Source: Octopus vulgaris
Taxonomy: Eukaryota
Direction: 5' to 3'
DNA: 64,000 nt
NCBI GenBank assembly: GCA_951406725.2
Contig: OX597822.1
Span: forward strand, 11,160,001-11,224,000
Part shown: piece after piece, positions 7,768 through 60,822 of the stretch
Numbering within the stretch: the first letter of the stretch is position 1
Layout: each line of letters starts with the position of its first letter
Made by a program: the position numbers and the translations under genes
The notes under the pieces: generated by a model
The model's database searches: none
Told to the model about the DNA's origin: nothing
The model's input: only the letters and a program-made list of their open reading frames with translations

Positions 7768-8407
7768 GTATATATATACATATGTATATATATGCATATG
7801 CATATATATCTATATGCACATACATACATCCTCGTAAATACGTACATATTTGTATATGTACACGATGACGCGCGCACACATGCTGATACAGCAGGGTGCT
7901 CAAAAGCATGCATATGTGTGTCTGTGCGTCACTGCTAGTTTCTCCAACTCGGTCACGGATTTCGTTAGTAATAAATTCCAATTCTTCTTACTTGATGCAT
8001 CATCAGACAAAAGTACCACGTGGGTAATACAAGTCCTCTTATCTTTGAACGTTATTCGTCTTAATGCGCCGAAGCATATTTAGAACGATGGATTTATATC
8101 AAGTACGAGGTAGTTTTTTGTTCGATGGTCCATCAATTACGAAGAATTGCAATTGCTAATTGAATTCATAAGCGAGTTGGTGAAACTGATAGCAGCAAAT
8201 ATTCTTTGAACTGTTGTAATAAATTTATAGTTTATGCACATATTGAATTAATGCTAAAAAATTGTATGACGCGCCCACACAGACGTCCTCACACATACAC
8301 ATACACACAGACACAGAGATACGCATACAGACACGACACAGATACACACACAGACACGCTAAGAAACTCATAATCAGCTAAAATAATATTTTTAATCTAT
8401 TGTATAT

Positions 8408-11497: not shown

Positions 11498-12055
11498 CGG
11501 GGGTGAGTCAAAAAGTAATGCCATTTTGTTTAGGAGACAGGTATAATTACCAACACAGGAACATGTATCATACATCAACATAAAGCTGGTCCTCTGTGGA
11601 TCACATATCTACTTCTCAACATAATCACCGTTTCTCTCAATAGCAATGTTCTACCTTCGAATGAAAGCATGTATCCGTGCCCCGTAAAATTCTTTTGACT
11701 GTTCTTTGATCCACTTCTTCACTACAGTTTTCACTTCCTCGTCGCTAGAATAATGTTTGCCTCTCAAACCCTCTTTCGTGACGCCGAAGAGATGATAGTC
11801 TGAAGGCGCTAAATCTGGTGAGTATGGAGGTAGTGAAGAAGTGGCTCAAAGAGAAGTCAACAGAATTTTACGGGGCAGGGATACATGGTCTTATCCGAAG
11901 GTGGAACATTGCTATTGAGAGAATCGGTGACTATGTTGAGAAGTAGGGATGTGATCCACAGAGGACCAGCTTCATTTTTATATATGATACATGTTCCTGT
12001 GTTGGTAATTATACCCGTCCTAAACAAAATGGCATTACTTTTTGACTCACCCTCG
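11498..12055. mobile_element. Palindromic mariner-derived non-autonomous element made of two inverted 3' ends
   Basis: TA-flanked; termini CGGGGGTGAGTCAAAAAGTAATGCC / GGCATTACTTTTTGACTCACCCTCG; arms ~225 bp; minus strand encodes PPYSPDLAPSDYHLFGVTKEGLRGKHYSSDEEVK (mariner YSPDLAPSD motif). Confidence 0.92.
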
Positions 12056-13250: not shown

Positions 13251-15376
13251 AGCTTTACAGTTGTATGCCAGACTTGTTTGGAGACGTATTTGCGGTGGTG
13301 TACTGCAACTGGCAGCAAAAATGGAGTATTCCTGGTTTTGTAAGCCGAGGAGCCGTAACACTGCTGAAGAAAGATCTAAACAAGACGAATGTAATAGACA
13401 ACTTTAGGCCTATCACTCTGCTTAATGCAGACTTGAACATTTTGGCCAAGGTCTTAGCCAAGAGGTAGGAACCTGGCATGGGTGGGGCGCTGATCAATTT
13501 GGATCAATCGAAAGCTTTCGATAGGGTAGACCATCGATACAGAGCGGCTGGTTTCGGTCTCGTCTTCCGCGGCTGGAAAGCCGCTTTGTACGGAGGCATC
13601 CGTTCAGTAATTCGCGTAAATGAAGATCTATCGAGACCTTTCGACATTGCACGTTCGGTCCGTCAGGGATACCCCACTCGTCGCTTCTCTACGTATTGAC
13701 TCTCGAGCCATTATTGCGGAAGTTGGCAACTCTGAGGGGCATCCCGCGAGAATTGGGATGCAGGACGAGCGTGTCTGCATACGCGGACGACGTCACCGTC
13801 ATAGTGTCTAGCCACGAGCACATCGAGCAAGTCGGTGAGGCACTGAAAGACTACGAAGCAGTGACAGGAGCAAAAATCAACCGGGAAAAATCAGTGGGCT
13901 TGCGACTCGGCACTTGGAGAAGCAAGCCCATGCCGTCCACCAGCGCCTCCGTCGTGGGAAGCTGGACCGACGGTCCGGTCGAGTTGCTCGGGGTCTGGTT
14001 TGGTTCGGACCTCCAAATGGAGAAGAACTGGAACGAGATAACAAGTAGGGTGGTCATTCTCACCAGACACTGGGCCGAGAGGAAACTGTCCCTAAAAGGT
14101 CGGGCGGTGGTGGGGAACTCGTACATCGCGTCCGTCATCTATTACCGCCTGACCGTCGTACCTTGTCCCGACCCTACCATCACCAAACTAGAACACATTC
14201 TCTTCCGCTTCTTGTGGAAAGATGCGTTCCGATGGTCACGCGATCCATTTGCTGTCAACACCCATTAAAAGGAGGACTGGGCATGCAGTGGTTGATGATG
14301 CGCAGACACGCGCTGAGACTACGACATCTCAGGCTCTATGTAGACGACGGTGAACAGGTGTGGTCGCCGTGTGTGAGGCAAGTTTTCCCGCAACTCGTCT
14401 CCATGACCGAACTGCACTCGTGGATCAAAAAGAGGCCGAGGAAGGGCGAATGGCACCGCGAGTGTCGCGTTGCTCTCAAGCAACTATGCCGTCCCGAGTC
14501 GTCCTTGAGTGACTTCAACACAACCCAAGCATTCTATAGGGGATTAGTGGAGGGGAGGTACGACGACTAGCTCGGGGCGAACCTGGACGTCAACGAGGAA
14601 TACCTGACCCGCCTGTTCGGGACGACTTTCAGGCCAGGTCCCATGGACAACTTCCAGAGATCCCTGGCCTGGCAGTGCTACCGAAAAGCGCTACCCGTTC
14701 GAGATAAGCTCTATAGGCATGGCTCGAGAAACACGGGGCCGACCTGCGCGAGATGCGGTCAGATCGACGAAACCGTTCTGCACGCACTCGTGCAGTGTCT
14801 AATAATTTCGACCTGTGGGCTTATGTCGAACAACTGCTGTCACGTGTGGGACGAGTCGGTTTATCAGCCAAGTCTAAGGTCAATATTGTCACGCCTCCTT
14901 CCTTCAAATGGGAAGGAAGAGCTATTTTCATCATCCTTGTGGCTATGACAAAAGAATATATCTGGTGGACGCGTCTGAAAGGATTAGAGACAAACACTTT
15001 CCTCTCTGGTCAATCTCTCATCAACTTCTTCAAGTATCACTTGAATGACGAAGCCACCTTGAGCATAATCCTATGAACCCGGATATTTAAAAGAGAGGGT
15101 TACCTACTTGCAAACAAATGTGGTAACATGTAACAATATTGACCGAGGTTACCGTGGTCTTTTCCGTAGGCTTTTCTTCCCACGATCCCTATTGATCGTT
15201 TTTTTTTTCTTTTGTTTCTTCTCCTTCTTTTCTTCTTTCCCTTTTCCGATCCCTTTTGATCGAAAATCTACCCCACCTTTTATTTTTATTTTATTCTATT
15301 TTTCACCTAAATAGAAAAGTTCTACTTTGTAATCTGTCCCGTCTGTGCGCAGCCCTGTGTGGCTAATAAAGAAACA
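13251..15376 (+). mobile_element. 5'-truncated, frameshifted L1/Tx1-clade LINE (RT + C-terminal zinc knuckle + 3' UTR)
   Basis: NFRPITLLNADLNILAKVLAKR; LINLDQSKAFDRVDH; SVRQG.P; SAYADDVT; KINREKS; LGVWF; CARCGQIDETVLHALVQC; 3' AATAAA; flanked by (TCTA)n on both sides. Confidence 0.93.
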
Positions 15377-15954: not shown

Positions 15955-16107
15955 AAAATGAGTTCAAATTCCGCCAAGGTCGACTTTGCCTTTCATCCTT
16001 TCGGGGTCGATGAATTAACCAGTTGCCTACTGGAGTCAAACTAATTGACTGCCCCCCCCCCACCAAAATACTTTCGGGCTTTGTGCCTAGAGTAGAGAAG
16101 AATATTT
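15955..16107 (+). mobile_element. SINE family B (Meta/MESC-like core GCCTTTCATCCTTTCGGGGTCGATAAA), 5'-truncated
   Basis: tgagttcaaattccgccaaggtcgactttgcctttcatcctttcggggtcgat... shared with copies at 24148-24908, 25800, 52599, 58390, 62820. Confidence 0.85.
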
Positions 16108-17086: not shown

Positions 17087-17099
17087 CACAGATCTTTCT

Positions 17100-17310
17100 T
17101 TCATTCTTTCATTTGTTTCAGTCAGCCGACTGTGGACATTCTGGAGGACCACCTTTAGTCGAATAAATCGATTCCAAAATTTAGCCTTTGTAAACCTAGT
17201 ACTTATTCTATCGGTCTCTTTTGCCGAATTGCTAAGTTTCGGGGACGCAAACCCACCAACATCGATTGTGAAATGATGGTGGGGGGACAAGTACACACAC
17301 ACACACACAT
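17100..17310 (-). mobile_element. SINE family A, 3' half
   Basis: tgtttcagtcagccgactgtggacattctggaggaccacc...ttgccgaattgctaag. Confidence 0.8.
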
Positions 17311-18150: not shown

Positions 18151-18350
18151 GGCGCAGGAGTGGTTGTGTGGCAATTAGCTCGCTTATCAACCACATGGTT
18201 CCAGGTTCAGTTCCACTGCGTAGCACCTCGGACAAGTTTCTTCTATTATAACCCCGGGCCGACCAAATCCTTGAGAGTGGATCACTTAAACGGAAATTGA
18301 AATAAGCTCGCCGTACATATGTACATGTATATATATGTATATATATATGC

Positions 18351-18383
<33 letters not shown>

Positions 18384-18629
18384 TATATAAATATATATAT
18401 ATATACATGTGTGTGTGTGTGTTTGTTTGTTTGTCCCCACCATTGCTTGAAAATCGATGTTAGTGTGTTTACGTCCCCGTAACTTAGCGATTCGGCAAAA
18501 GAGAGCGATAGAGTAAGTACTAGGCTTACACAAAATAAGTCCTGGGGTAGATTTATTCGATTAAATGGCGGTGCTCCAGCATGGCCGCAATCAAATGACT
18601 GAAGTAAGGAAAAGAATAAAAGAATAAGA
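18151..18629 (+). mobile_element. Full-length tRNA-derived SINE family A with internal (TA)n/(TG)n tract
   Basis: Head GGCGCAGGAGTGGTTGTGTGG (A box) ..GGTTCAGTTCC (B box); body; tail GGCGGTGCTCCAGCATGGCCGC..GACTGAA-(AAGAATA)n. Confidence 0.92.
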
Positions 18630-19096: not shown

Positions 19097-19128
<32 letters not shown>

Positions 19129-19245
19129 AAATAGTAAAAAGTGAAAAACTACAGAAGGCTTGTTTTAAAAGGTTAAAAAATATATTTAAGTCATTATGTC
19201 AGAAGAATGTTATAAAATTTTTTCATACAGTGACATAGTTTTTGA

Positions 19246-19282
19246 AGAAATTACCGGTTTCGTGTTAACTTTTCAAATTTCT
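19246..19282 (-). ncRNA. Penelope pLTR hammerhead ribozyme, U3-A8 variant (copy 1)
   Basis: Exact reverse complement of 21145-21181. Confidence 0.85.
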
Positions 19283-19403
19283 CAAAACATCGTGTTATGA
19301 CTTCATTATGAAGTGTAAAGAAGAGTTCTAGGTAAGGGGAGGTAATAAGTGATTTCTTCCGGTGTAAGGGAGATAATCGCTTTATATTTCTTGCCTTCTT
19401 TAC

Positions 19404-20565
19404 TTAATGGGGTGAGTTTCTCTGTATAAGGATGATAGAGTGGTTAATTTTTGGCTTATATTTTTCAATGAAGAATATTTCCTTGTTTAGTCTAATTTGT
19501 GTTGGTGTTCCAATAGCACATTGATAAAATGGAAAGATTAAAAATTGTGGTAGTAGTTGCTTTGCGCATTTCTCAATATGCTCACTAAAGGGTATCATTC
19601 TGTATTCTGGGAATGCAATCTGAGTGATAGTCCCGTGGACTCCACGTAGTTTTGGTGGCAGCCCGAGCATCTTATGACATAAATTATGTTTTCAGAAGCA
19701 CAAGTAAAATTAGATTTGATCTTGAATTTTTGTCCCTCTTTGAAGAGGAATTCTGATCCTTCTAGAAGGTTTGAGCATGTTGCGCAGTTTGTTCTACCAC
19801 ATTTTTTTACTTTTGCATTCGTAATTTCAGAAAGCAATTTTGCCTTTGTGAGAATCTTTTTAAGTGATTTAGGTTGTTTGTAGCTTTTAATGATTTTATG
19901 TATGTTTAGAATTTCCTTTAATTTGGGGTCCTTATGAAGTATTGGTAAATTCTGGGTGATGATGGTGAAGGCTTCTTTGTTTCTGGGGTTGTATGTGGAT
20001 ATGTAAGGCAGTATTTTCGGGGAAGTTGTGTTGTTGTGTTGAACTTTTCTCAAAGTTTCTATGTCGATTTCTGTTGCACGTCTGATCCCATCCTCTATGA
20101 GTTGAGTTGGGTATGTCTGTTCATTAGGGTGTTTTTGAGTTCTTGTAGTCTAAAGTTCCTGGTATTTTGTTCTGACACTATTGTGCATATCCTTCTTGCA
20201 AGGTTGAAAGGGATGTTTGTTTTAGTGTGTCTTGGGTGGTATGAATCAAAAAGTAGGTATTGTGTGGCGTCTGTGGTTTTGTAAAAAATGTCTGTTTCTA
20301 TTTTAAGGTTAATTTTTTAATTAGTATATCTAAGAATGGAAGCTCCTTTTGGTTGTATTCCATTGTGAACTGCATATTTGGGTTGATGCTGTTCAATAGG
20401 TTTTTGAATTTTAGGAGTTTATCTGTGTTTACATTCCAGAGTATAAAACAATCATCCAGGAATCGTTTCCAATTCTCTTTTATGTATTGAGAGAGGGGGT
20501 TTCCAAAGGTTGATAAAGATTGCTGGTAAACAATTATTTCCAGATAGCCCATTGTTAGGTTCGCA
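19404..20565 (-). pseudogene. Penelope RT/GIY-YIG ORF fragment with frameshifts and a 28-bp deletion
   Basis: Pieces in ORFs 20298-20714 (only the part below 20565 is genuine), 19595-20053 and 19404-19670. Confidence 0.9.
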
Positions 20566-21024
20566 TTGACTGAAATTACGGATGCAAAAGTAAAAAAATG
20601 TGGTAGAACAAACTGCGCAACATGCTCAAACCTTCTAGAAGGATCAGAATTCCTCTTCAAAGAGGGACAAAAATTCAAGATCAAATCTAATTTTACTTGT
20701 GCTTCTGAAAACATAATTTATGTCATAAGATGCTCGGGCTGCCACCAAAGCTACGTGGGGTCCACGGGACTGTCACTCAGACGTAGATGCACACTGCATC
20801 GACAACAGATTGCATTCCCAGAATACAGAATGATACCCTTTAGTGAGCATATTGAGAAATGCGCAAAGCAACTACTACCACAATTTTTAATCTTTCCATT
20901 TTATCAATGTGCTATTGGAACACCAACACAAATTAGACTAAACAAGGAAACATTCTTCATTGAAAAATATAAGCCCAAACTTAACCACTCTAACATCCTT
21001 ATACAGAGAAACTCACCCCATTAA
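20566..21024 (+). pseudogene. Uninterrupted Cys-linker + GIY-YIG endonuclease reading frame of the inverted Penelope copy (no true start codon)
   Basis: 152-aa ORF with CxxxxCxxC linker, IIY..C..C...YVG and CCHH residues. Confidence 0.85.
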
Positions 21025-21144
21025 GTAAAGAAGGCAAAAATATAAAGCGATTATCTCTCTTACGCCGGAAGAAATCACTTATTACCTCCCCTTACCTAGA
21101 ACTCTTCTTTACACTTCATAATGAAGTCATAACACGATGTTTTG

Positions 21145-21181
21145 AGAAATTTGAAAAGTTAACACGAAACCGGTAATTTCT
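21145..21181 (+). ncRNA. Penelope pLTR hammerhead ribozyme, U3-A8 variant (copy 2)
   Basis: agaaat-TTGAAAA-GT-taac-AC-GAAA-CCGG-TA-atttct; 6-bp stem I; predicted cleavage after 21175; ~120 nt downstream of the EN stop codon. Confidence 0.85.
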
Positions 21182-21342
21182 TCAAAAACTATGTCACTGT
21201 ATGAAAAAAATTTATAACATTCTTCTGACATAATGACTTAAATATATATTTTAACCTTTTAAAACAAGCCTTCTGTAGTTTTTTTCACTTTTTACTATTT
21301 TCTATATATTCAACCACGTGCTTTCACACACCAACTTTCTCA

Positions 21343-21529: not shown

Positions 21530-21925
21530 GGTGCTAGGGTGGGTGTGTGGTACGAAGCTTACTTCCCAACTACATGGTTCCAGGTTCAGTCCCACAGCGT
21601 GGCACTTTCGGCAAGTGTCTTCTACTATATAACTCCGGTCCGATCTTAGCCTTCTGAGTGGATTCGGTAGACGGAAACTGAAAGAAGCTCGTTGTATATA
21701 TATATGAATGTATTTGTGTGTCTGTGTTTGGCCGCCTACCTGTCCACCATCGCTTGACAACAGATGCTGCTGCGTTTATGTTCCCGTAACTTAGCGGTTC
21801 GGCCAAAAACCGGATCGAATAAGCATTAGGCTTACAAAGAGAATGTCCTGGGGTCGATTTACTCGACTAAAAGTGGTGCTCCAACAATGCCGCACTGAAG
21901 CAATTAACAGAAATAAAAGAAATAA
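21530..21925 (+). mobile_element. Full-length SINE family A
   Basis: Head, body and tail all recognisable against the 18151 and 45246 copies. Confidence 0.88.
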
Positions 21926-24147: not shown

Positions 24148-24359
24148 GAAGGCGAGGACCTAGCAGAATGGTCAACATGCCGGAAAATTGCTTAGCGGCA
24201 TTTCGTCCGTCTTTACGTTCTGAATAAAAATTCCACTGAGGTCGATTTTGCCTGTCATCCTTTCGGGGTCGATAAATTAAGTACCAGGTGCGTACTGGGG
24301 TTGATGTAATCGACTCATCACTTTCCCCAAATTGCTGCCCTTGTGGAAAAATTTGAAAC

Positions 24360-24444
<85 letters not shown>

Positions 24445-24908
24445 ATTATTACAGCGGTGACCTGGTAGAAATGTTAGTACGCTAGACGAAATGCTTAGCA
24501 GTGTTTCGCCCGTCGCTACATCCTGAGCCCAAATTCCGCCGAGGTCGATTTTGCCTTTCATCCTTTCGGGTCGATAAATTAAATACTAGAGAAACAGAGG
24601 GTCGATGTAATCGACTACCCCCACCCACCCACAAATAAATAAAACTTCAGGCCTTGTGCTATAGTAGAAAGGATTATTATTATTGTTACGGCGGTGTGCT
24701 GGCAGAATCGTTAGCACACCGAGCAAAATGCTTAGCGGCTTTTCATCTGTCTTTACGTTCCGAGTTCAAATGCTTCTGAGGACGACGTTGTCTTTTATCC
24801 CTTTCGTGGTCGATAAAATAAGAACCAGTCTAGCACTGCGATCGATGTAAGGGATTTATTTCCTCCCCCGAAATTGCTGGTCTTGTGCCAAAATTTGTGA
24901 CTAATATT
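24148..24908 (+). mobile_element. Three tandem copies of SINE family B separated by (ATT)n/(GTT)n tails
   Basis: Heads at ~24148, ~24453 and ~24690 (ggcg..ctggcagaa..gttagcac..aaatgcttagcg) each followed by the core gcctttcatcctttcggggtcgataaa. Confidence 0.9.
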
Positions 24909-26439: not shown

Positions 26440-26800
26440 ATTTATCTTTTATATTTTACTTTTTCCAGTCATTAAACTGTGGCCATGCTGGAGGGTTTAG
26501 TTGAACAAATCGACCGCAGCACTTAAATATATTCCAATCTGGTATTTATTCTATCGAACTTCGTTTGCAAAACTTCAAAGTTATGAGGACGTAAACACAC
26601 CAACACCGGTTGTCAAGCGATGGAAGGGAAATAACAATCGCACACACACAAACATACACATATTTATACGAAGGGCTTCCACATAGTTTTGCGTCTACCA
26701 AATTCGCTCACAAGGCATCCGTCAGCCCAGGGCTATAACAGATGACACATACCCAAGGAACCGCGCAATGCGACTGAACCCGAAACTCCGTGGTTGGAAA
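26440..26800 (-). mobile_element. SINE family A
   Basis: ctgtggccatgctggag..gacgtaaacacaccaacaccggttgtcaagcgatg..gactgaacccgaaac. Confidence 0.82.
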
Positions 26801-26989
26801 GCGATGATGGTGACGATGATGATGATGATGATGATAATGGTGGTGGTTTTAGTGATGGTGATGGTGTTCCTGGGGGATGATGATGATGATGATGATGGTG
26901 TTGGTCACTGTCGCGGTGGGCGAACTTCTTGACCGCGCAGTCATTTTAACCAAAATATTCAGTGCAGTACAATACATCATATTTCACGC

Positions 26990-32114: not shown

Positions 32115-32280
32115 TACACGACGGGCTTCTTTAAGTTTCTGTCCACCAAATCCACTCACAAAGCTTTGGTCGGCCCGAGGCTATAGTAGAAGACACTTGC
32201 CCAAGGTAGCATGCAATGGGACTGAACACGGAACCATGTGGTTGAGAAACAAGCTTCTTACCACATGGCCACCTCAGCGT
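32115..32280 (-). mobile_element. SINE family A, 5' half
   Basis: cgacgggcttct..ccaaatccactcacaa..ggtcggcccgaggctatagtagaagacacttgcccaagg. Confidence 0.85.
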
Positions 32281-32342
32281 ATAGAATTGATTAAAAATAT
32301 TATTTTGGCTGATTATGAGTTTCTTAACGCGTCTGCATATTA

Positions 32343-32592
32343 TTGGGTTGGTGCATAATTATTGCAGCTCTTTTTTCAACAAATTTTATTCCACAAAAAC
32401 AATAACAACTTATAACAAAGTCATCTTTAAATGGTTATTCCGGATGATATTCACCATCTACTTCAATTACTCCTTCCCATTTGCTTGGCAGACGGTCAGA
32501 CCGTCATTTAAAGATGTTTTTGTTAAATATTGTTATTTCTTGTTGAATAAAATTTGCTGAAAAATAGCCGCAATAATTATGCACCAACACAA
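32343..32592. mobile_element. Mariner-derived MITE
   Basis: TIRs TTGGGTTGGTGCATAATTATTGC / GCAATAATTATGCACCAACACAA, left TA; minus-strand remnant RLPSKWEGVIEVDGEY* (mariner transposase C-terminus). Confidence 0.85.
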
Positions 32593-45117: not shown

Positions 45118-45245
45118 ACTGGAAATGTAATCTGGATCACGGTGAATACAATAGAATCGAATATCTTCCGAAATAATCTGGAAAGGAATGGAAATGTATT
45201 AATGGTTTTATAGTTTTCATATGTTGTAATGTGATAATAGATATA

Positions 45246-45406
45246 GGCGCAAGAGTGGCTGTGTGGTAAGTAGCTTGCTCACCAACCACATGGTTCCCGG
45301 TTCAGTCCCGTGCGTGGCAACTTGGACAAGTGTTCTCTACTATAGCCTCGGGCCGACCAAAGCCTTGAGAGTGGATTTGGTAGACGGAAACTGAAAGAAG
45401 CCCGTC

Positions 45407-45458
<52 letters not shown>

Positions 45459-45669
45459 GTTTGTATGTATTGTTGTATGTGTGTGTTTGTCCCCACCATC
45501 GTTTGAAAAAACGATGCTGGTGTGTTTACGTCCTCGTAACATAGCGGTTCGGCAAGAGAACCGATAGAATAAGTACCAGGCTTGCAGAGAATAAGTTCTG
45601 GGAGCGATTTGTTCGACTAAAGGCGGTACTCCAGCATGGTCGCAGTCGAATGACTGAAACAAAAGAATA
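45246..45669 (+). mobile_element. Full-length SINE family A
   Basis: GGCGCAAGAGTGGCTGTGTGGTAAG...GGCGGTACTCCAGCATGGTCGCAGTCGAATGACTGAAAC. Confidence 0.93.
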
Positions 45670-45830
45670 CAAGGTTTGCATTACAAAGTATTCACGAAAG
45701 ATCCATTTACAACATACTGTCCTTTAGTCCACTTAAACACAGAGTTAAATTTCTAAATGACTTAAAAGAACATGTGGCTTCATAGTTCTAAAATGGTAAA
45801 AAGGAGTACTCGAATACCAGAGTAAAAAAA

Positions 45831-45904: not shown

Positions 45905-46268
45905 TTTTCTTCTTTTCTTATTTTATTTGTTTCAGTCTTTTGACTGCGGCCATGCTGGAGCACTGCTTTTAGTCGCGCAAATCAACCCCAAGACTTATTC
46001 TTTGTAAGCCTAGTATTTATTCTATCGCTCTCTTGCCGAACCGATAAGTGACGGGGACGTAAACACACCAGCATCGGTTGTCAAGCGATGTTGGAGGGAC
46101 ACAGACACACAAAACACACACACACACACATACACACACACACATATATATATACATACACATAAATATATATAAACGACGGGCTTCTTTCAGTTTCCGT
46201 CTACCAAATCCACTCACAAGACTTTGGTCAGCCCGTGGTTATAGTAGAAGACACCTGCCCAAGGTGCA
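45905..46268 (-). mobile_element. SINE family A lacking its tRNA head
   Basis: Tail and body match 46501-46899; breaks off at cccaaggtgcacgc. Confidence 0.88.
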
Positions 46269-46432
46269 CGCATTTCTGCGATGGTGGGCTGTGTGTTAAG
46301 GCTATACTTAATACATAAATCCACCAATGCGTCCTCAGGGTATGCATATCATTATTATTATGTACAGGTAAAAGTTAAAAGTTAAAAGTTAAAAATCGTA
46401 TTATATATATATATATATACATATATACATGC

Positions 46433-46500: not shown

Positions 46501-46897
46501 TCTTTTACTCTTTTACTTGTTTCAGTCATTTGACTGCGGCCATGCTGGAGCACCGCCTTTAATCGAGAAACTCGACCCCGGGAATTATTCTTTTGTAAGC
46601 CCAGTATTTATTCTATCGGGATCTTTTGCCGAACCGCTAAGTAACGGGGACATAAACACACCAGCATCGGTTGTCAAGCAATGCTAGGGGAACAAACACA
46701 GACACACAAACACACACACGCATATATATACATATATACGACTTCTTCTTTCAGTTTCCGTCTACCAAATCCACTCACAAGGCTTTGGTCAGCCCGAGGC
46801 TTAGTAGAAGACACTTGCCCAAGGTGCCACGCAGTGGGTCTGAACCCGGAACCATGTAGTTGGTAAACAAGCTACTTACCAGATAACCACTCCTGCG

Positions 46898-46899
<2 letters not shown>
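46501..46899 (-). mobile_element. Full-length SINE family A
   Basis: Reverse complement of the 18151/45246 consensus; flanked by (TA)n. Confidence 0.93.
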
Positions 46900-46957
<58 letters not shown>

Positions 46958-48530: not shown

Positions 48531-48578
48531 CAAACTGTGTAGACAAAAAGCTCATTGTGATTTATAATATACGTATAT

Positions 48579-48975
48579 AAATTTATAGTTATAATTATGA
48601 TTATAATTAAGAGTACTAGATAGTACCAGCGTTGCTAGAAATGAGAGTCGAAAAATACACAAATAAGCCACAGTATCACTGACAAGCTGAACAAGCTGAA
48701 CGAAATCGAGCGTGACGAAGCCGGTATTAGTTTAACCTCAGGCACCGAGACCCACTGAAGAGAACTAAGAGTATTATCGCAGGGACCGAAATCATGTGAT
48801 ATGGGTATATCTGCAAATTCATTTGCGTTTTTTTCCCCGTAATAGTAGGTTGGCCTTTTACTAGCCCCTCGATTTCGTTCAGCCTGTGACTTATTTGAGT
48901 ATTTTTCGACTCCTATTTTTAGAAAAGCCAGTACTATATGGTTCCCTTAATCATGATTATAAATTTATAAATTTA
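48579..48975. mobile_element. MITE-like element with long imperfect inverted repeats
   Basis: gagtcgaaaaatacacaaataagccacag..gctgaacgaaatcgag vs ctcgatttcgttcagc-ctgtgacttatttgagtatttttcgactc. Confidence 0.7.
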
Positions 48976-49122
48976 CCTTTTTTTCCTGGGGGTTAAAATG
49001 TGGTAACATGGTCCTACGCAGGACTGCCCCCTTACGTTGGCAAATAGATCTTACTTTGAAGTATAGTTACTACTGAGATCTCATTCAGAGATTTAAAACT
49101 AGCAATTTTGCTCATTGTATGT

Positions 49123-49558
49123 ATTCTTTTATTTTTTATTCGGTCATTTTGACTGCGGCCATGCTGGAGCACCGCCTTTTTAGTCGAGCAAATCAATCAC
49201 AGGAGCTATTCTTTCTAAGCCTAGTACTTATTCTATTAGTTTCTTTTGCCGACCCGCTAAGTGAGGGGGACGTAAACACACCAACACCGGTTGTCAAGCG
49301 ATGGTGGGACAAACACCGACACATACATACGCACACACACACACACATACACACACACACACACGTACACACACACACATGTATGAATATATATACGACG
49401 AGCTTCTTTCAATTTCCGTCTACCAAATCCACTCACAAGGCTTTTGTTAGCTCAAGGGTATAGTAGAAGACACTTGCCTAAGGTGCCACGTAGTTGGACT
49501 GAACCCGTAACCATGTGGTTGGGAAGCAGGCTTCTTACCACATAGCCACTTCTGCGTC
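49123..49558 (-). mobile_element. Full-length SINE family A
   Basis: Tail gactgcggccatgctggagcaccgcc through head cttaccacatagccacttctgcgtc. Confidence 0.92.
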
Positions 49559-49596
49559 TTTCTCCGTCTCTCCCTCCCCACTCTCTCTCTCTCTTT

Positions 49597-49876: not shown

Positions 49877-50023
49877 TTATATTGTGTGAAATTTGATTTA
49901 GTATTTCTAAATTAAATTTTTTTCCTTGTAAGTTTGGATTTTATTCCTTCAAATAATAATAACTATATCCGGAGTCATTATTGTTGCTTATTTTGATTTT
50001 AAATATATATATATATGTATACA

Positions 50024-51249
50024 CAGGGATTGGACTAAATAATGGAAACACCTAGCATCACAGCATCATAATTTTTAAATATTTTATAAAACCGTCAAAA
50101 GCTTGTTTATTTTTATGTTATTTGATTAATTATTAGTGTTGCTTAATATGTTTTGCTAAAATCGCTGTTTCTTTTCAGATATCATCAGAAAAAGGTAATT
50201 AAAATGCATTAAAATCACAGATCTATCGGACTTTCAAAGCGGTCAAATTATTGGTGCTCATATGGTAAGTGCTAGTGCAATGAAAACACCTGAAATGTTT
50301 GTTGTATCAAGAAGTACTGTCTCAAAAGTAACGACAGCCTTTGAGAAAGAGGGAAAAACCTCGTTGTTGAAACAAAACTCCGGAAGAAAACCAAAGCTTT
50401 CAGATAGGGATTGTCGGACTCTTACGCAAGTTGTTAGAAAGGATCACATAAGTACAGCTCCCAAAATTACTGCAGAGCTTAATAACCACCTCGAGAACCC
50501 AGTTTCCGCAAAAACTGTTCGCCGAGAGCTGCACAAAGTCGGATTTCACGGGAGGGCTGCAATCAGAAACCCACTACTTTCAAAAACAAGCGTTACAAAG
50601 CGTTTAGAGTGGAGTAAAAACCTACAGAATTGGTCCCTAGAGCAGTGGAAGAATGTTATTTTCCCTGACAAATCATCCTTTACCTTATTTCCGACCACTG
50701 TCCAAGTATACATGTGGAGACAGCCTTCTTCCAACTGTTAAACATGGAGGAGGATCTGTGATGATCTGGGGCCGGGGGCTACATCTTGGGAATCCGCTGG
50801 CCCAATGGTTTCCCTTTATGACAGACTTAATAGTCAAGACTATTTAAGCATTTCATCTAATAAAATTCATCCTATGGTTGCGAAACTGTTTCCGGAGGGA
50901 AACGCGCAATCTTTCAGGATGATAATGCACCAATTCACACCGCTAAAGTTGTTACTGACTGGCACGAGGAACATTCTAGTTATAAGAACATCTTATCTGG
51001 CCACCACAGTCTCCAGATCTCAATATTACTGAACATTTATGGTTCCTTTTAGAAAAACAAGTAAGAAGTCGATATCCTCCATCTGTTTTAGCTGAAGAGT
51101 GGAAAACATTCCTTTGGAAACAATTCAAACTTTGTGCGACTCCATACCTCGTAGAATTCAATCTGTAATTATAGCCAAATGCGGTCCTGCTCCATATTAG
51201 AATAAATTTATTTGAAATTTTAAGGTGTTTCCATTACTTTGTCCAACCC

Positions 51250-51252
<3 letters not shown>
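50024..51252 (+). mobile_element. Tc1-family DNA transposon with both TIRs and a disrupted DD34E transposase
   Basis: 30-bp TIRs CAGGGATTGGACTAAATAATGGAAACACCT / (rc) CAGGGGTTGGACAAAGTAATGGAAACACCT; HTH SGRKPKLSDRD; WKNVIFPDKS; PTVKHGGGSVMIWG; FQDDNAPIH; WPPQSPDLNITEHLW; right TA. Confidence 0.95.
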
Positions 51253-51334
<82 letters not shown>

Positions 51335-53510: not shown

Positions 53511-53561
53511 ATTCGGTGCTGCATCTCAAAAAATAGTGGATTGTTTAAAGAATCATTACAC

Positions 53562-54090
53562 GCAAGATACAGAAATAATTTATTCTCAAACGCATGATAA
53601 TGCTAATACAATAGCATGAACAGGATAAACTATCCATATATTGGGAGTAAAAAGTTATTGCCGGCCATAGGACCCGAACTCACATCCCTTTGATTACACA
53701 TCAAGTGCTTTACCTTTAAGCTAAACTTCCCAGTAACGAACTGTTCTGCAATTTTAGGATTTATATATCCAGCATTATAAGACGCTAAATCTATATTCAA
53801 CTTACGATGAAAGTAAACTAACAAAATTTTCTTTAGAAGCGTTGAGATGTATTGAAAGATACAGAAATAATTTAAGGTAAAGCACTTAACGCGTAATCAC
53901 AGGGATGTAAGTTCGAGACACATGGCTGGCCGGTAACGATTTTCTCTGCAATATGTGGCTAGTTTATCCTATTCGTGCTATTGCATTAACATTATCATGC
54001 GTTGGGAATAAGTTATTTCTGTATCTTTCAATACATCTCAACAATTCTAAAGCGAATTTTGTTTGTTTACTTTCATCGTATGTTGAATTT
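53562..54090. mobile_element. Fold-back element with a tRNA-like module and nested inverted repeats
   Basis: 53564-53718 pairs with 53873-54026; 53795-53872 pairs with 54010-54089; flanking direct repeat ATCATTACAC at 53552-53561 and 54091-54100. Confidence 0.75.
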
Positions 54091-55123
54091 ATCATTACAC
54101 TCGTCTCAATAGCGTGATTATTTATTACCGATACGATGTACATTACATAACATATTGCATAGCGTTACGCGAATACGCATTGTGTTTTTACTATATATAC
54201 GCACACAGACATCCACCCATATACAGTAATCCGAAGAAACTGGTGATGGTGTGTTTGGACAACTCTGCATAAACTCCTACCAAGGAATGTAATTGTGGCC
54301 CTTCTTTTGGCTAGAAATACAGACAATGCATTTAGGCAAGGATACCGTCTGAAAAAGTCAACTGGTGATTGTAACAGACAGATTAAATGTCTTTGTTGTT
54401 AGATCTTATCAGAGAAGCATATTCACCTGAGGAGGTGAAACAGAGAAGAAATTAATTCATATAGGAACTAGATAAATATAGGGACACCGATTATGAATAA
54501 TGCCACGTTTACATTCGTTCTGGAATGCCATGGGAAGTACCATTCCATGCACATATTCACATACATACATAGATACGTACATAATAATATTCTCCCACTC
54601 TCTCTCTCTCTCTCGATCTCTCTCACACACACACATACGCAATAAGTGATGTAAATGTTGGTTGGTTTGCAAGTTACACGTTACGTAGTAGAGGGAAGGG
54701 ACGAAAATAGTTAAAAGAAGATACAGAAGGTCTAATCATTAGAGGTACAGGACGAGGAATTCGCATGATAGGCTTGATGGCAGACAGTGAGAGAGAAACT
54801 GCTGATGAAAACGTTGGCATTGGTCGGATGCGAACTGAGAACGCTCAGATTCGGAACGAATAGTAAAGGACTATTTTTCCGATGTTCTGAACGATGATGA
54901 CTATTCGCCAAATTAAAAGAAAAGCAATCATTTCAAGGGCGGCTTTACTCATTGAGATATGACACTTTAGTGAAAAGTGTTGGGGACTCCCAGCGTTAAG
55001 TCTAATAAACACATTAGGTATTTTGTTATAAAGGGAAGAGTACAGATCGACAAAGACATAGATAAACAAAAAGAATATATATGTATATATATATTTATAT
55101 ATATGTATATATATATATATAAA

Positions 55124-55825: not shown

Positions 55826-55902
<77 letters not shown>

Positions 55903-55955
55903 GTTTAAATATTTGTTGTGCAAGATTTTTTATGTGAAGTCGTGTATTGAAACAG

Positions 55956-56256
55956 ATATTGCTATATTTCGGAATGGTCATATTGCCAGTTTAGCCAATA
56001 AAAACACACGCACTATATAATTGCTGTTCCCTTGCTTCAGCTTTATTTCATATTAATTGTATTTCGGCCAGAGTTAGTAAGGAGAGACGCACAAAAAAGA
56101 AAGAAGAAAGCAAAGGACCTCTGATGAGGTCATAGAACTATGACAAAGAACTGGCCGAAATACAATTAATATAAAATAAAACTGAAGCAAGTGAACACCA
56201 AATATATTGTGCGTGTGATGTTATTGGCTAAACTGGCAACATGACTCTCCCCAAAT

Positions 56257-56265
<9 letters not shown>
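55956..56265. mobile_element. Fold-back element (~115-bp arms) with a hammerhead-like core in the spacer, ending in (TA)n
   Basis: 55956-56071 vs 56151-56265 inverted; CTGATGA-GGTCA...TGGCC-GAAA at 56121-56160. Confidence 0.7.
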
Positions 56266-56306
<41 letters not shown>

Positions 56307-56961: not shown

Positions 56962-57229
56962 AAGCCCTCGACAGAAAAAAAGAAACCTTTCCTATCAGAG
57001 TTGAAGACGAACCTATATCACTTTCTTAACGCGACTACGTGTGTTACCTTTATACTAGCGAAACACTTCCAGTTTCATCTCAAATTTAAGAACTATAATA
57101 GTTCGTGTTTGTTTTTAAATATGTAAACAAACTTTGTAAAGGTAACACACTTAGTCGCGTTAACAAAGGGATGTAGGTTCGACTCCCACGCTGATAAGAA
57201 AGGTTTCTTTTTTTTTCTGTCGAGAGCTT
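56962..57229. mobile_element. Second tRNA-like fold-back element
   Basis: Arms 56962-57052 / 57137-57229; right arm taaaggtaacacac..gggatgtaGGTTCGACTCC (B box). Confidence 0.72.
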
Positions 57230-60591: not shown

Positions 60592-60628
<37 letters not shown>

Positions 60629-60629
<1 letters not shown>

Positions 60630-60822
60630 TTTATTTAAAGCAGCAGAAAATTCAACAAACCCTGTTACCATTCTAGCAAAAACTGTCCGATGAACGGCAA
60701 CGGGAAACTCAGAGTAACAGGTTTTGTTGAATTTTCTGCTGCTTTAAATAAAGCATATTACTCTACCACTGGTATTTGAGTACTCTTTTTTCCACCTTGT
60801 TTCACATTTATGTGTTTAATCC

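Follow-up and report, generated by a model that had tools for sequence, protein, structure and literature searches.

A fold-back element of Octopus vulgaris with a tRNA-like module and a candidate Penelope-type insertion layout

A fold-back of ~530 bases, hereafter E1, is located at 53552-54100 of the window, i.e., the whole stretch of 64,000 nucleotides of the Octopus vulgaris genome analysed here, and is bounded by a 10-base duplication. The best explanation of its structure, to which a probability of roughly 55% is given, is a non-autonomous passenger of Penelope-like elements (PLEs) that was made from tandem or circular RNA and has a tRNA-like module at the place of the retrozyme hammerhead. 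E1 was likely inserted by a PLE reverse transcriptase (RT)/GIY-YIG enzyme supplied in trans. The involvement of the PLE machinery as such is quite probable, as it is common to this passenger reading and to another one, in which a tRNA array was captured.

Architecture of E1 and its insertion site

On the minus strand, the order of segments in the long arm of E1 (53562..53874) is A-B-C-D-A, with a period of 292 nt; the arm thus comprises a 292-nt unit plus a 19-nt repeat, with 2 nt before the target-site duplication (TSD). Segment A is this 19-nt direct repeat, whose outer copy (53564..53582, minus) forms the 3' end of the long arm, while the identical inner copy (53856..53874, minus) is the stub of an upstream unit. 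Shuffling of the left arm gave repeats longer than 13 nt in 0/1000 cases, the longest shuffled repeat being of 13 nt. Between both copies stand segment B (53792..53855, minus), which is the start of the unit body, segment C (53720..53791, minus), which occurs once and contains the 5' end of the tRNA-like module and a TATA-like site, and segment D (53583..53719, minus), which includes the 3' part of the module, a T run, and a 67-nt downstream stretch. Together, D and A are the equivalent of a pLTR of about 156 nt. An earlier note on this DNA had described a unit of ~290 nt at 53872->53564, starting and ending with the same sequence. Such a repeat-ended unit is indeed present, with a span that corresponds to one unit plus the repeat rather than to the unit alone.

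The short arm (53871..54090, plus) is an inverted and 5'-truncated copy that reads D'-A'-B' and has 86% identity to the long arm. It starts at 53871/53875, which corresponds to about position +12 to +15 of the tRNA (D-stem/D-loop), runs via A' into B', and ends at 54088/54090, in agreement with the inverted copy that had been described as leading from the D-loop through the end of the unit into its beginning. The arms meet head to head at 53871..53875, where 2-4 nt (TTA/TTAA) are common to both. They overlap over ~220 nt with a difference of 14% (31/216 aligned positions, 6 of them CpG-type), and the identity of the short arm to the long one amounts to 55/71 in the tRNA part, 57/68 in the remainder of D, 18/19 in A, and 57/64 in B. 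The sequence of segment B is also that of the tail of the inverted arm (B', about 61-63 nt, 54028..54090, plus), which is found at this end only. The outer segment A and the end of the tail would represent the first and second start sites of reverse transcription, respectively.

As C-D-A is displayed by one arm and D-A-B by the other, the series D-A-B-C-D is closed whatever the starting point, and the template of E1 was therefore tandem or circular, as previously proposed. Outside CpG, the arms are 13% different, yet no mismatch is seen in the 29 nt of the TSD and the A repeat (P 0.018, or 0.086 with A+B only), and the balance leans towards arms copied from two different RNA templates. The long arm, by stopping ~20 nt past a full turn, would suit a circular RNA template in this single case.

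The flanking duplication of 10 bp reported earlier is found as ATCATTACAC on the plus strand, at 53552..53561 on the left and at 54091..54100 on the right. It is flush with the arms, save for 2 nt (GC) on the left side, and it includes ATT. Among control boundary pairs with the same spacing, a repeat of at least 10 nt was observed in 7/4166, 6 of those 7 being within dispersed repeat copies, and a flush TSD was found in 0/5 of the other fold-backs of the window. The 10 nt preceding the left TSD (53542-53551) are partly like the terminal 10 nt of this right arm (54081-54090), giving a 20-nt pair with 80% identity when the TSD is included; this resemblance possibly reflects a target preference, or chance.

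E1 is not an autonomous PLE, as no ORF for RT plus GIY-YIG is present and the longest open frame has 80 codons, without Pfam match or homologue. This stop-free frame (53633-53872, minus, across A-B-C-D) was considered as a coding role for the left arm and judged a chance occurrence (21/1000 shuffles). The homologue search gave one candidate, none at E 0.1, and 0 hits in 1.84 billion representatives. The frame is disrupted in the right arm, where a 60-codon frame has no homologue either, and translated pieces of other E1 copies were absent from the results of those protein searches.

The window is AT-rich and microsatellite-dense (171 TRF rows, GC 25-46%), and contains dispersed repeats as well as several fold-backs. 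Long inverted arms are seen in two MITE-like elements, at 11498-12055 and 32343-32592, whose ends may resemble Tc1/mariner termini. A remnant of a Tc1-type transposon with 36-nt inverted ends lies at 50018-51258 (Tc3 HTH domain at 50199-50738), a broken LINE-type reverse transcriptase region at 13624-15076 (RVT_1, E 7e-10), and a weak fold-back (66%) at 7937-8187, with a near-direct repeat of 16 nt on its two sides (7865 and 8266). An abundant SINE-like family of ~400 nt with an internal microsatellite is represented at 17096-17289, 18151-18624, 21530-21921, 26445-26802, 32115-32335, 45237-45673, 45910-46272, 46501-46908, and 49116-49559, among others, and a second SINE-like repeat family near 15959, 24149-24908, 25798, 52605, 58431, and 62841.

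The tRNA-like module of E1 and of a second fold-back, E2

The tRNA-like module announced for E1 is present at 53730->53659 on the minus strand, in a degenerate form. D, anticodon, and T arms can be recognized, the acceptor stem is broken, and the isotype is not assignable. The module reaches 22.7 bits against the Rfam tRNA model (E 0.057, model positions 8-63), for a gathering score of 29, and 0 tRNA is called by ARAGORN in the window; hence its description as degenerate. Neither a complete cloverleaf according to ARAGORN nor the Rfam gathering score being reached, it does not qualify as a functional tRNA gene. The left copy of E1 folds into D, anticodon, and T arms with a stability no better than that of shuffles (114/200), and no cloverleaf fold is found in the remaining three arms of E1 and of E2, the second fold-back bearing the module. 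In all four arms, the module is degenerate, with a G at the U33 position (by eye) and a broken acceptor.

Over the whole window, no RNA family attains its gathering score in Rfam. No tRNA match to E2 is included among the 47 Rfam matches listed, and the miRNA matches at E1 and E2 are generic hairpin hits far below the cut-off. A special fold of the 292-nt unit was also considered and set aside (z -1.22, reached by 22/200 shuffles). A scan of prokaryotic genomes with a D-arm/T-loop pattern retrieved 120 loci, 53 of which are placed in tRNAs of 11 amino-acid types by ARAGORN; the best identities to the left module within this pattern-selected set are 46/67 for Thr, 47/67 for Lys, and 49/72 for Met. 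The scan confirms the tRNA-like spacing alone, and it gives neither isotype nor donor. A bacterial or phage origin of the module was rejected, as blastn against phage and plasmid sequences gave only 28-45-nt matches with E 0.1-0.6 (6 and 3 records).

Signals of Pol III type accompany the module. On the minus strand of E1, these are an A box (53723-53713), a B-box-like site (53680-53670), a TATA-like site at -37 in segment C (53767-53762), and a terminator-like T5 run at +78 (53649..53653). The A box is found in both long arms, and the B box agrees with the consensus at 11/11 positions in the right arm of E2 and at 8-9/11 in the other arms. In E2, the TATA-like site is located at -36 and the T run at +84. 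Pol III terminates at T runs, and transcription would stop at the T5 of E1 without reaching A and B. Since this run precedes the arm ends and since 144 nt of the long arm of E1 precede the tRNA start (+1), a simple Pol III transcript is an unlikely template. The Pol III promoter claimed in the earlier note therefore holds as far as its motifs are concerned and not as the source of a simple transcript copied as such. The RNA copied into E1 is unlikely to be a plain Pol III product and would rather be a read-through multimer or a circle.

E2 is a head-to-head fold-back (56962..57229) with arms of ~92 nt that are 85% alike, the +1 of its module at 57064 (minus), and T7/T9 runs. Its ends are flush inverted copies of each other, the right one adjoining (ATCT)n. 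The module is common to E1 and E2 (nhmmer E 0.0004-0.004, 0/1000 shuffles), and with nhmmer --max over the window, only the four arms of E1 and E2 are retrieved below E 2. The inverted arm of E2 begins at tRNA position +11 to +13, and that of E1 at about +12 to +15. Thus, the module is present in at least two diverged elements, both of them fold-backs with the same inner start, which may reflect either a preferred stop in two separate events or the inheritance of one junction. No relatedness to E1 is detected in the upstream region of E2 (755/1000 shuffles as good), and the termini of both elements have no sequence in common. Neither TSD nor tail nor wrap-around was found in E2, the score of the wrap-around being matched by 398/500 shuffles and the homology of its left extension with D-A-B of E1 by 296/300. 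Segments A, B, C, and distal D of E1 have no other copy within the 64 kb.

Penelope-type layout and competing explanations

In PLE insertions as described by Craig et al. (PMC8557442), a truncated copy stands ahead of a full one, the 5' end is often bordered by a further copy, inverted and 5'-truncated, and a tail of 30-40 bp is found at one end. Pen2a of Adineta vaga is reported as an inverted pLTR beside pLTR-body-pLTR; its tail is of 31 bp and its TSDs measure 8, 9, and 10 bp (PMC3846280). Mapped on this layout, E1 consists of an inverted D'A' with its tail B', then the stub A, the body B-C, and D-A. The partial tandem is represented by A-B-C-D-A with its 19-nt stub, D'-A'-B' confirming the passage from A into B. 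The inverted copy (53871-54090) is 5'-truncated, adjacent at the 5' end, and outward-pointing in sense, and the TSD, of 10 bp and in AT-rich DNA, is within the 8-10 bp of Adineta. The one-sided tail is of 61-63 nt in E1 versus 30-40 bp in published PLEs.

The tandem-plus-inversion of Penelope style that had been suggested is supported by this published layout and also by an element at 19120-21309 of the window, a PLE with matching geometry. This PLE contains remnants of an RT with a C-terminal GIY-YIG (E 6e-4 for the GIY-YIG-like domain, below the Pfam cut-off) and is built, as E1, of a long arm on the minus strand and a short inverted one on the plus strand, with outward sense. One of its relatives, P0002, in which the RT is followed by GIY-YIG, maps to the window in the same way, as a long minus arm and a short inverted plus arm. 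The element at 19120-21309 is a young truncated PLE (12 mismatches/703 aligned nt), whose left end adjoins (TA)n.

The fold-back at 55902-56266, situated between (TA)n runs, is probably a PLE pLTR remnant. It has a hammerhead-like core at 56121 (with a long stem II of 5 bp), its inverted arm starts inside this core, and one arm is ~54 nt longer. At 60625-60757, a degenerate stretch that looks hammerhead-like by eye immediately precedes the start of the inverted arm; the small fold-back (60625 to about 60810) adjoins (TA)n. The tRNA-like module of E1 and E2 sits where the hammerhead sits in these two fold-backs. No hammerhead core with stem II was found on either strand of E1 and E2 with an insensitive scan that detected 1/4 of the other fold-backs, and no hammerhead match to either element was found with Rfam.

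The ends of E1 were also compared with those of window elements. An end motif trained on four other fold-backs of the window, E1 being excluded, has its best E1 site at the A/B boundary in 5/6 arm-by-width tests, with a score matched by 25-140/300 shuffles, and an equally strong motif was obtained from 2/15 shuffled training sets. In pairwise comparisons, 1/8 reached 1/500 shuffles, the other 7 being at 57-442/500, and the tail-versus-tail comparison was equalled by 90/500 shuffles. The best match to A-B of E1 (1/500 shuffles, one of 8) is the right end of an older fold-back at 48578-48975, with arms about 77% alike. A kinship in sequence between E1 and a PLE 3' end is thus only suggestive.

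A purified PLE protein, a predicted dimer, was shown to cleave both DNA strands and to extend them, with a preference for ATT within AT-rich DNA, and to initiate reverse transcription at two internal RNA sites whose spacing equals the tail (Frangieh et al., PMC11167929). According to the same source, hammerhead cleavage is dispensable for insertion in vitro, so the hammerhead analogy assigns no required role to the tRNA-like module. For the insertion of E1 as a PLE passenger, a tandem array, or an RNA circle derived from it, would provide an RNA reading D-A-B-C-D without interruption. The PLE enzyme would then make cuts, 10 nt apart, in the two strands of AT-rich DNA, and each DNA 3' end would prime at an internal RNA site, either at the end of A or at the end of B. 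Two such sites ~60 nt apart would account for the one-sided tail. One cDNA would extend over a full turn plus about 20 nt, whereas the other would stop on reaching the 5' side of the D-arm of the tRNA, and both would be joined head to head via 2-4 nt of microhomology. By analogy, the tRNA-like fold would most likely mark an RNA 5' end or an RT stop, caused by host tRNA processing, by a Pol III start, or by a modified base; this is the least supported step. A more specific version is put forward only tentatively: a tRNA mimic, either cleaved by RNase P/Z of the host or initiated by Pol III, would replace the hammerhead in a miniature Penelope passenger family and convert tandem transcripts to 292-nt monomers or circles, which would then be copied by the PLE enzyme from both DNA strands.

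The same machinery is also invoked by the rival that survives best, although it is unlikely. In this case, tRNA genes or pseudogenes in an ordinary tandem array would have been transcribed by read-through, and a PLE enzyme would have copied this transcript once or a few times, the module being a cargo with no self-propagating family. Indeed, the TATA-like site at -37/-36, the A box, the B box, and the prompt T run give E1 and E2 the look of a free-standing Pol III gene, and the likeness of both elements is confined to the module. Unrelated host sequence was mobilised in trans by Adineta pLTRs, but these published cases required pLTR sequence in cis (PMC3846280). Capture is also at odds with a module that is degenerate in all four arms, and the occurrence of two such events at a distance of 3 kb, sharing their inner start, points to numerous copies.

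An improbable alternative is a one-off local rearrangement, by which a tRNA-derived SINE or satellite unit would have been duplicated and inverted during repair (template switching, twin priming, or nested insertions). Twin priming yields non-overlapping parts of one RNA, unlike the arms of E1, which overlap by ~220 nt and are 14% different. Such a rearrangement would fit the microhomology at the inner junction and the single copy of E1 in the window, whereas the TSD encloses the whole structure, neither poly(A) nor simple-repeat end is present, and both the fold-back and its inner start point recur in E2.

Mutator-like elements have a 10-bp TSD and long inverted arms, two features that E1 shares. 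E1 and E2 could accordingly be the rearranged and the simple copy of a DNA transposon (MITE) of Mutator or fold-back type, with tRNA-like sequence in its long TIRs, a decidedly improbable reading despite the flush inverted ends of E2 and an inherited inner boundary that would account for the common D-arm start. Indeed, the termini of E1 are not mutual reverse complements, its right end having an extra 61-63 nt that are also present internally, two rearrangements are required, and no terminal sequence is common to E1 and E2. The misfit to an ordinary SINE or MITE that had been asserted is therefore upheld for SINEs and, as regards MITEs, for E1, while E2 may be a MITE.

The miniature DIRS-like element also proposed in the earlier note, with left ITR, internal complementary region (ICR), right ITR, and right extension (rE), integrated by a tyrosine recombinase, is very improbable: a stretch that fits a right ICR in definition and size is present (53792-53874 vs 54009-54091, 90%) and B' is within the rE range of 9-75 bp (PMC3266345), but left ICR candidates are no better than 67-432/500 shuffles (9 tests), the predicted circle junction is crossed by no 10-mer in either orientation, and E2 lacks an ICR (420 and 435/500 shuffles). 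DIRS1-like elements are described with two ICRs that overlap on a 3-bp junction and with an integration that makes no TSD, whereas E1 has one (Piednoel et al., PMC3266345). By eye, segment C resembled the left flank and suggested a left ICR, but this likeness disappeared against shuffles.

Comparison with known systems

E1 resembles DIRS1-like elements in that its termini are inverted, a right extension is present, and the right end has a complement inside the element (PMC3266345). With tRNA-derived SINEs, it has in common a tRNA-like head with A and B boxes, but differs by its internal module, the T5 at +78, the lack of a simple-repeat tail, and a permuted inverted layout, and is thus not a SINE. 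Helenus TRIMs (TRIMp3), described in molluscs, are like E1 non-SINE non-autonomous retroelements with a tRNA-derived A/B-box module in their repeat (PMC10886601). They possess two direct LTRs, a PBS, a PPT, and a TSD of 4-5 bp, and depend on LTR elements (PMC10886601), whereas E1 has a repeat of 19 nt, inverted arms and modules, and a TSD of 10 bp, which places it outside Helenus.

Non-LTR retrozymes are tandem, hammerhead-bearing, and non-coding, and have been proposed to be PLE derivatives (PMC7229834; bioRxiv 10.64898/2026.07.22.740005; PMC8969392). Circular RNA intermediates have been demonstrated for retrozymes, and those of metazoans resemble E1 by their small non-coding AT-rich tandem unit and a TSD >4 bp (PMC7229834; bioRxiv 10.64898/2026.07.22.740005). 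Retrozymes are defined by a type I hammerhead per unit, whereas none was found in E1, which has a tRNA-like module instead; the word tRNA is absent from bioRxiv 10.64898/2026.07.22.740005. Non-autonomous PLEs of Chlamys (MRC1) are, like E1, non-coding passengers with pLTRs and head-to-tail insertions, in a clade without canonical hammerheads (PMC8557442). MRC1-type elements resemble an autonomous partner at the 3' end, a kinship that is only suggestive for E1, and the main text of this source leaves tRNA-like modules unmentioned in Chlamys PLEs (PMC8557442).

The closest layout is that of endonuclease-containing PLEs (Penelope/Poseidon, Neptune, Naiad; e.g., Pen2a_Av), with which E1 shares the partial tandem, the inverted 5'-truncated copy, the tail at one end, the TSD of 8-10 bp, and the outward sense. 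E1 differs from them by the lack of an RT/GIY-YIG ORF, a unit of 292 nt, a tail of about 62 nt versus 30-40, and a tRNA-like module in the pLTR equivalent, where no hammerhead core was found. E1 behaves like a non-autonomous PLE, yet is outside the retrozyme definition.

According to a published annotation, PLEs represent 6.8% of the O. vulgaris genome (PMC13282606), and Penelope expansions are reported in coleoids (PMC8967140). A 10-nt motif of the module is absent from the tables in the supplement of the O. vulgaris repeat paper (PMC13282606), and tRNA is not mentioned in PMC4209133. No description of a tRNA-bearing PLE passenger was found in the literature searched, chiefly outside subscription journals, nor any paper printing a 14-nt stretch of the module. 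The family of E1 may already be filed in a repeat library as SINE, MITE, or unknown. If common, it would be a source of false tRNA and MITE calls in such genomes.

SINEs are the tRNA-derived passengers of LINEs. If E1 belongs to a family, it would be a PLE passenger with a tRNA-like module in place of a ribozyme, and, if this is true, tRNA-type passengers would play for PLEs the part that SINEs play for LINEs and Helenus for LTR elements. The mechanism of tandem and inverted PLE insertions is still called undefined (PMC8557442; PMC11167929). With its TSD, its two distinct 3' ends, and arms perhaps derived from two RNAs, E1 would constitute a compact natural record of the PLE reaction, and its 292-nt unit a ready substrate for the published in vitro PLE assay.
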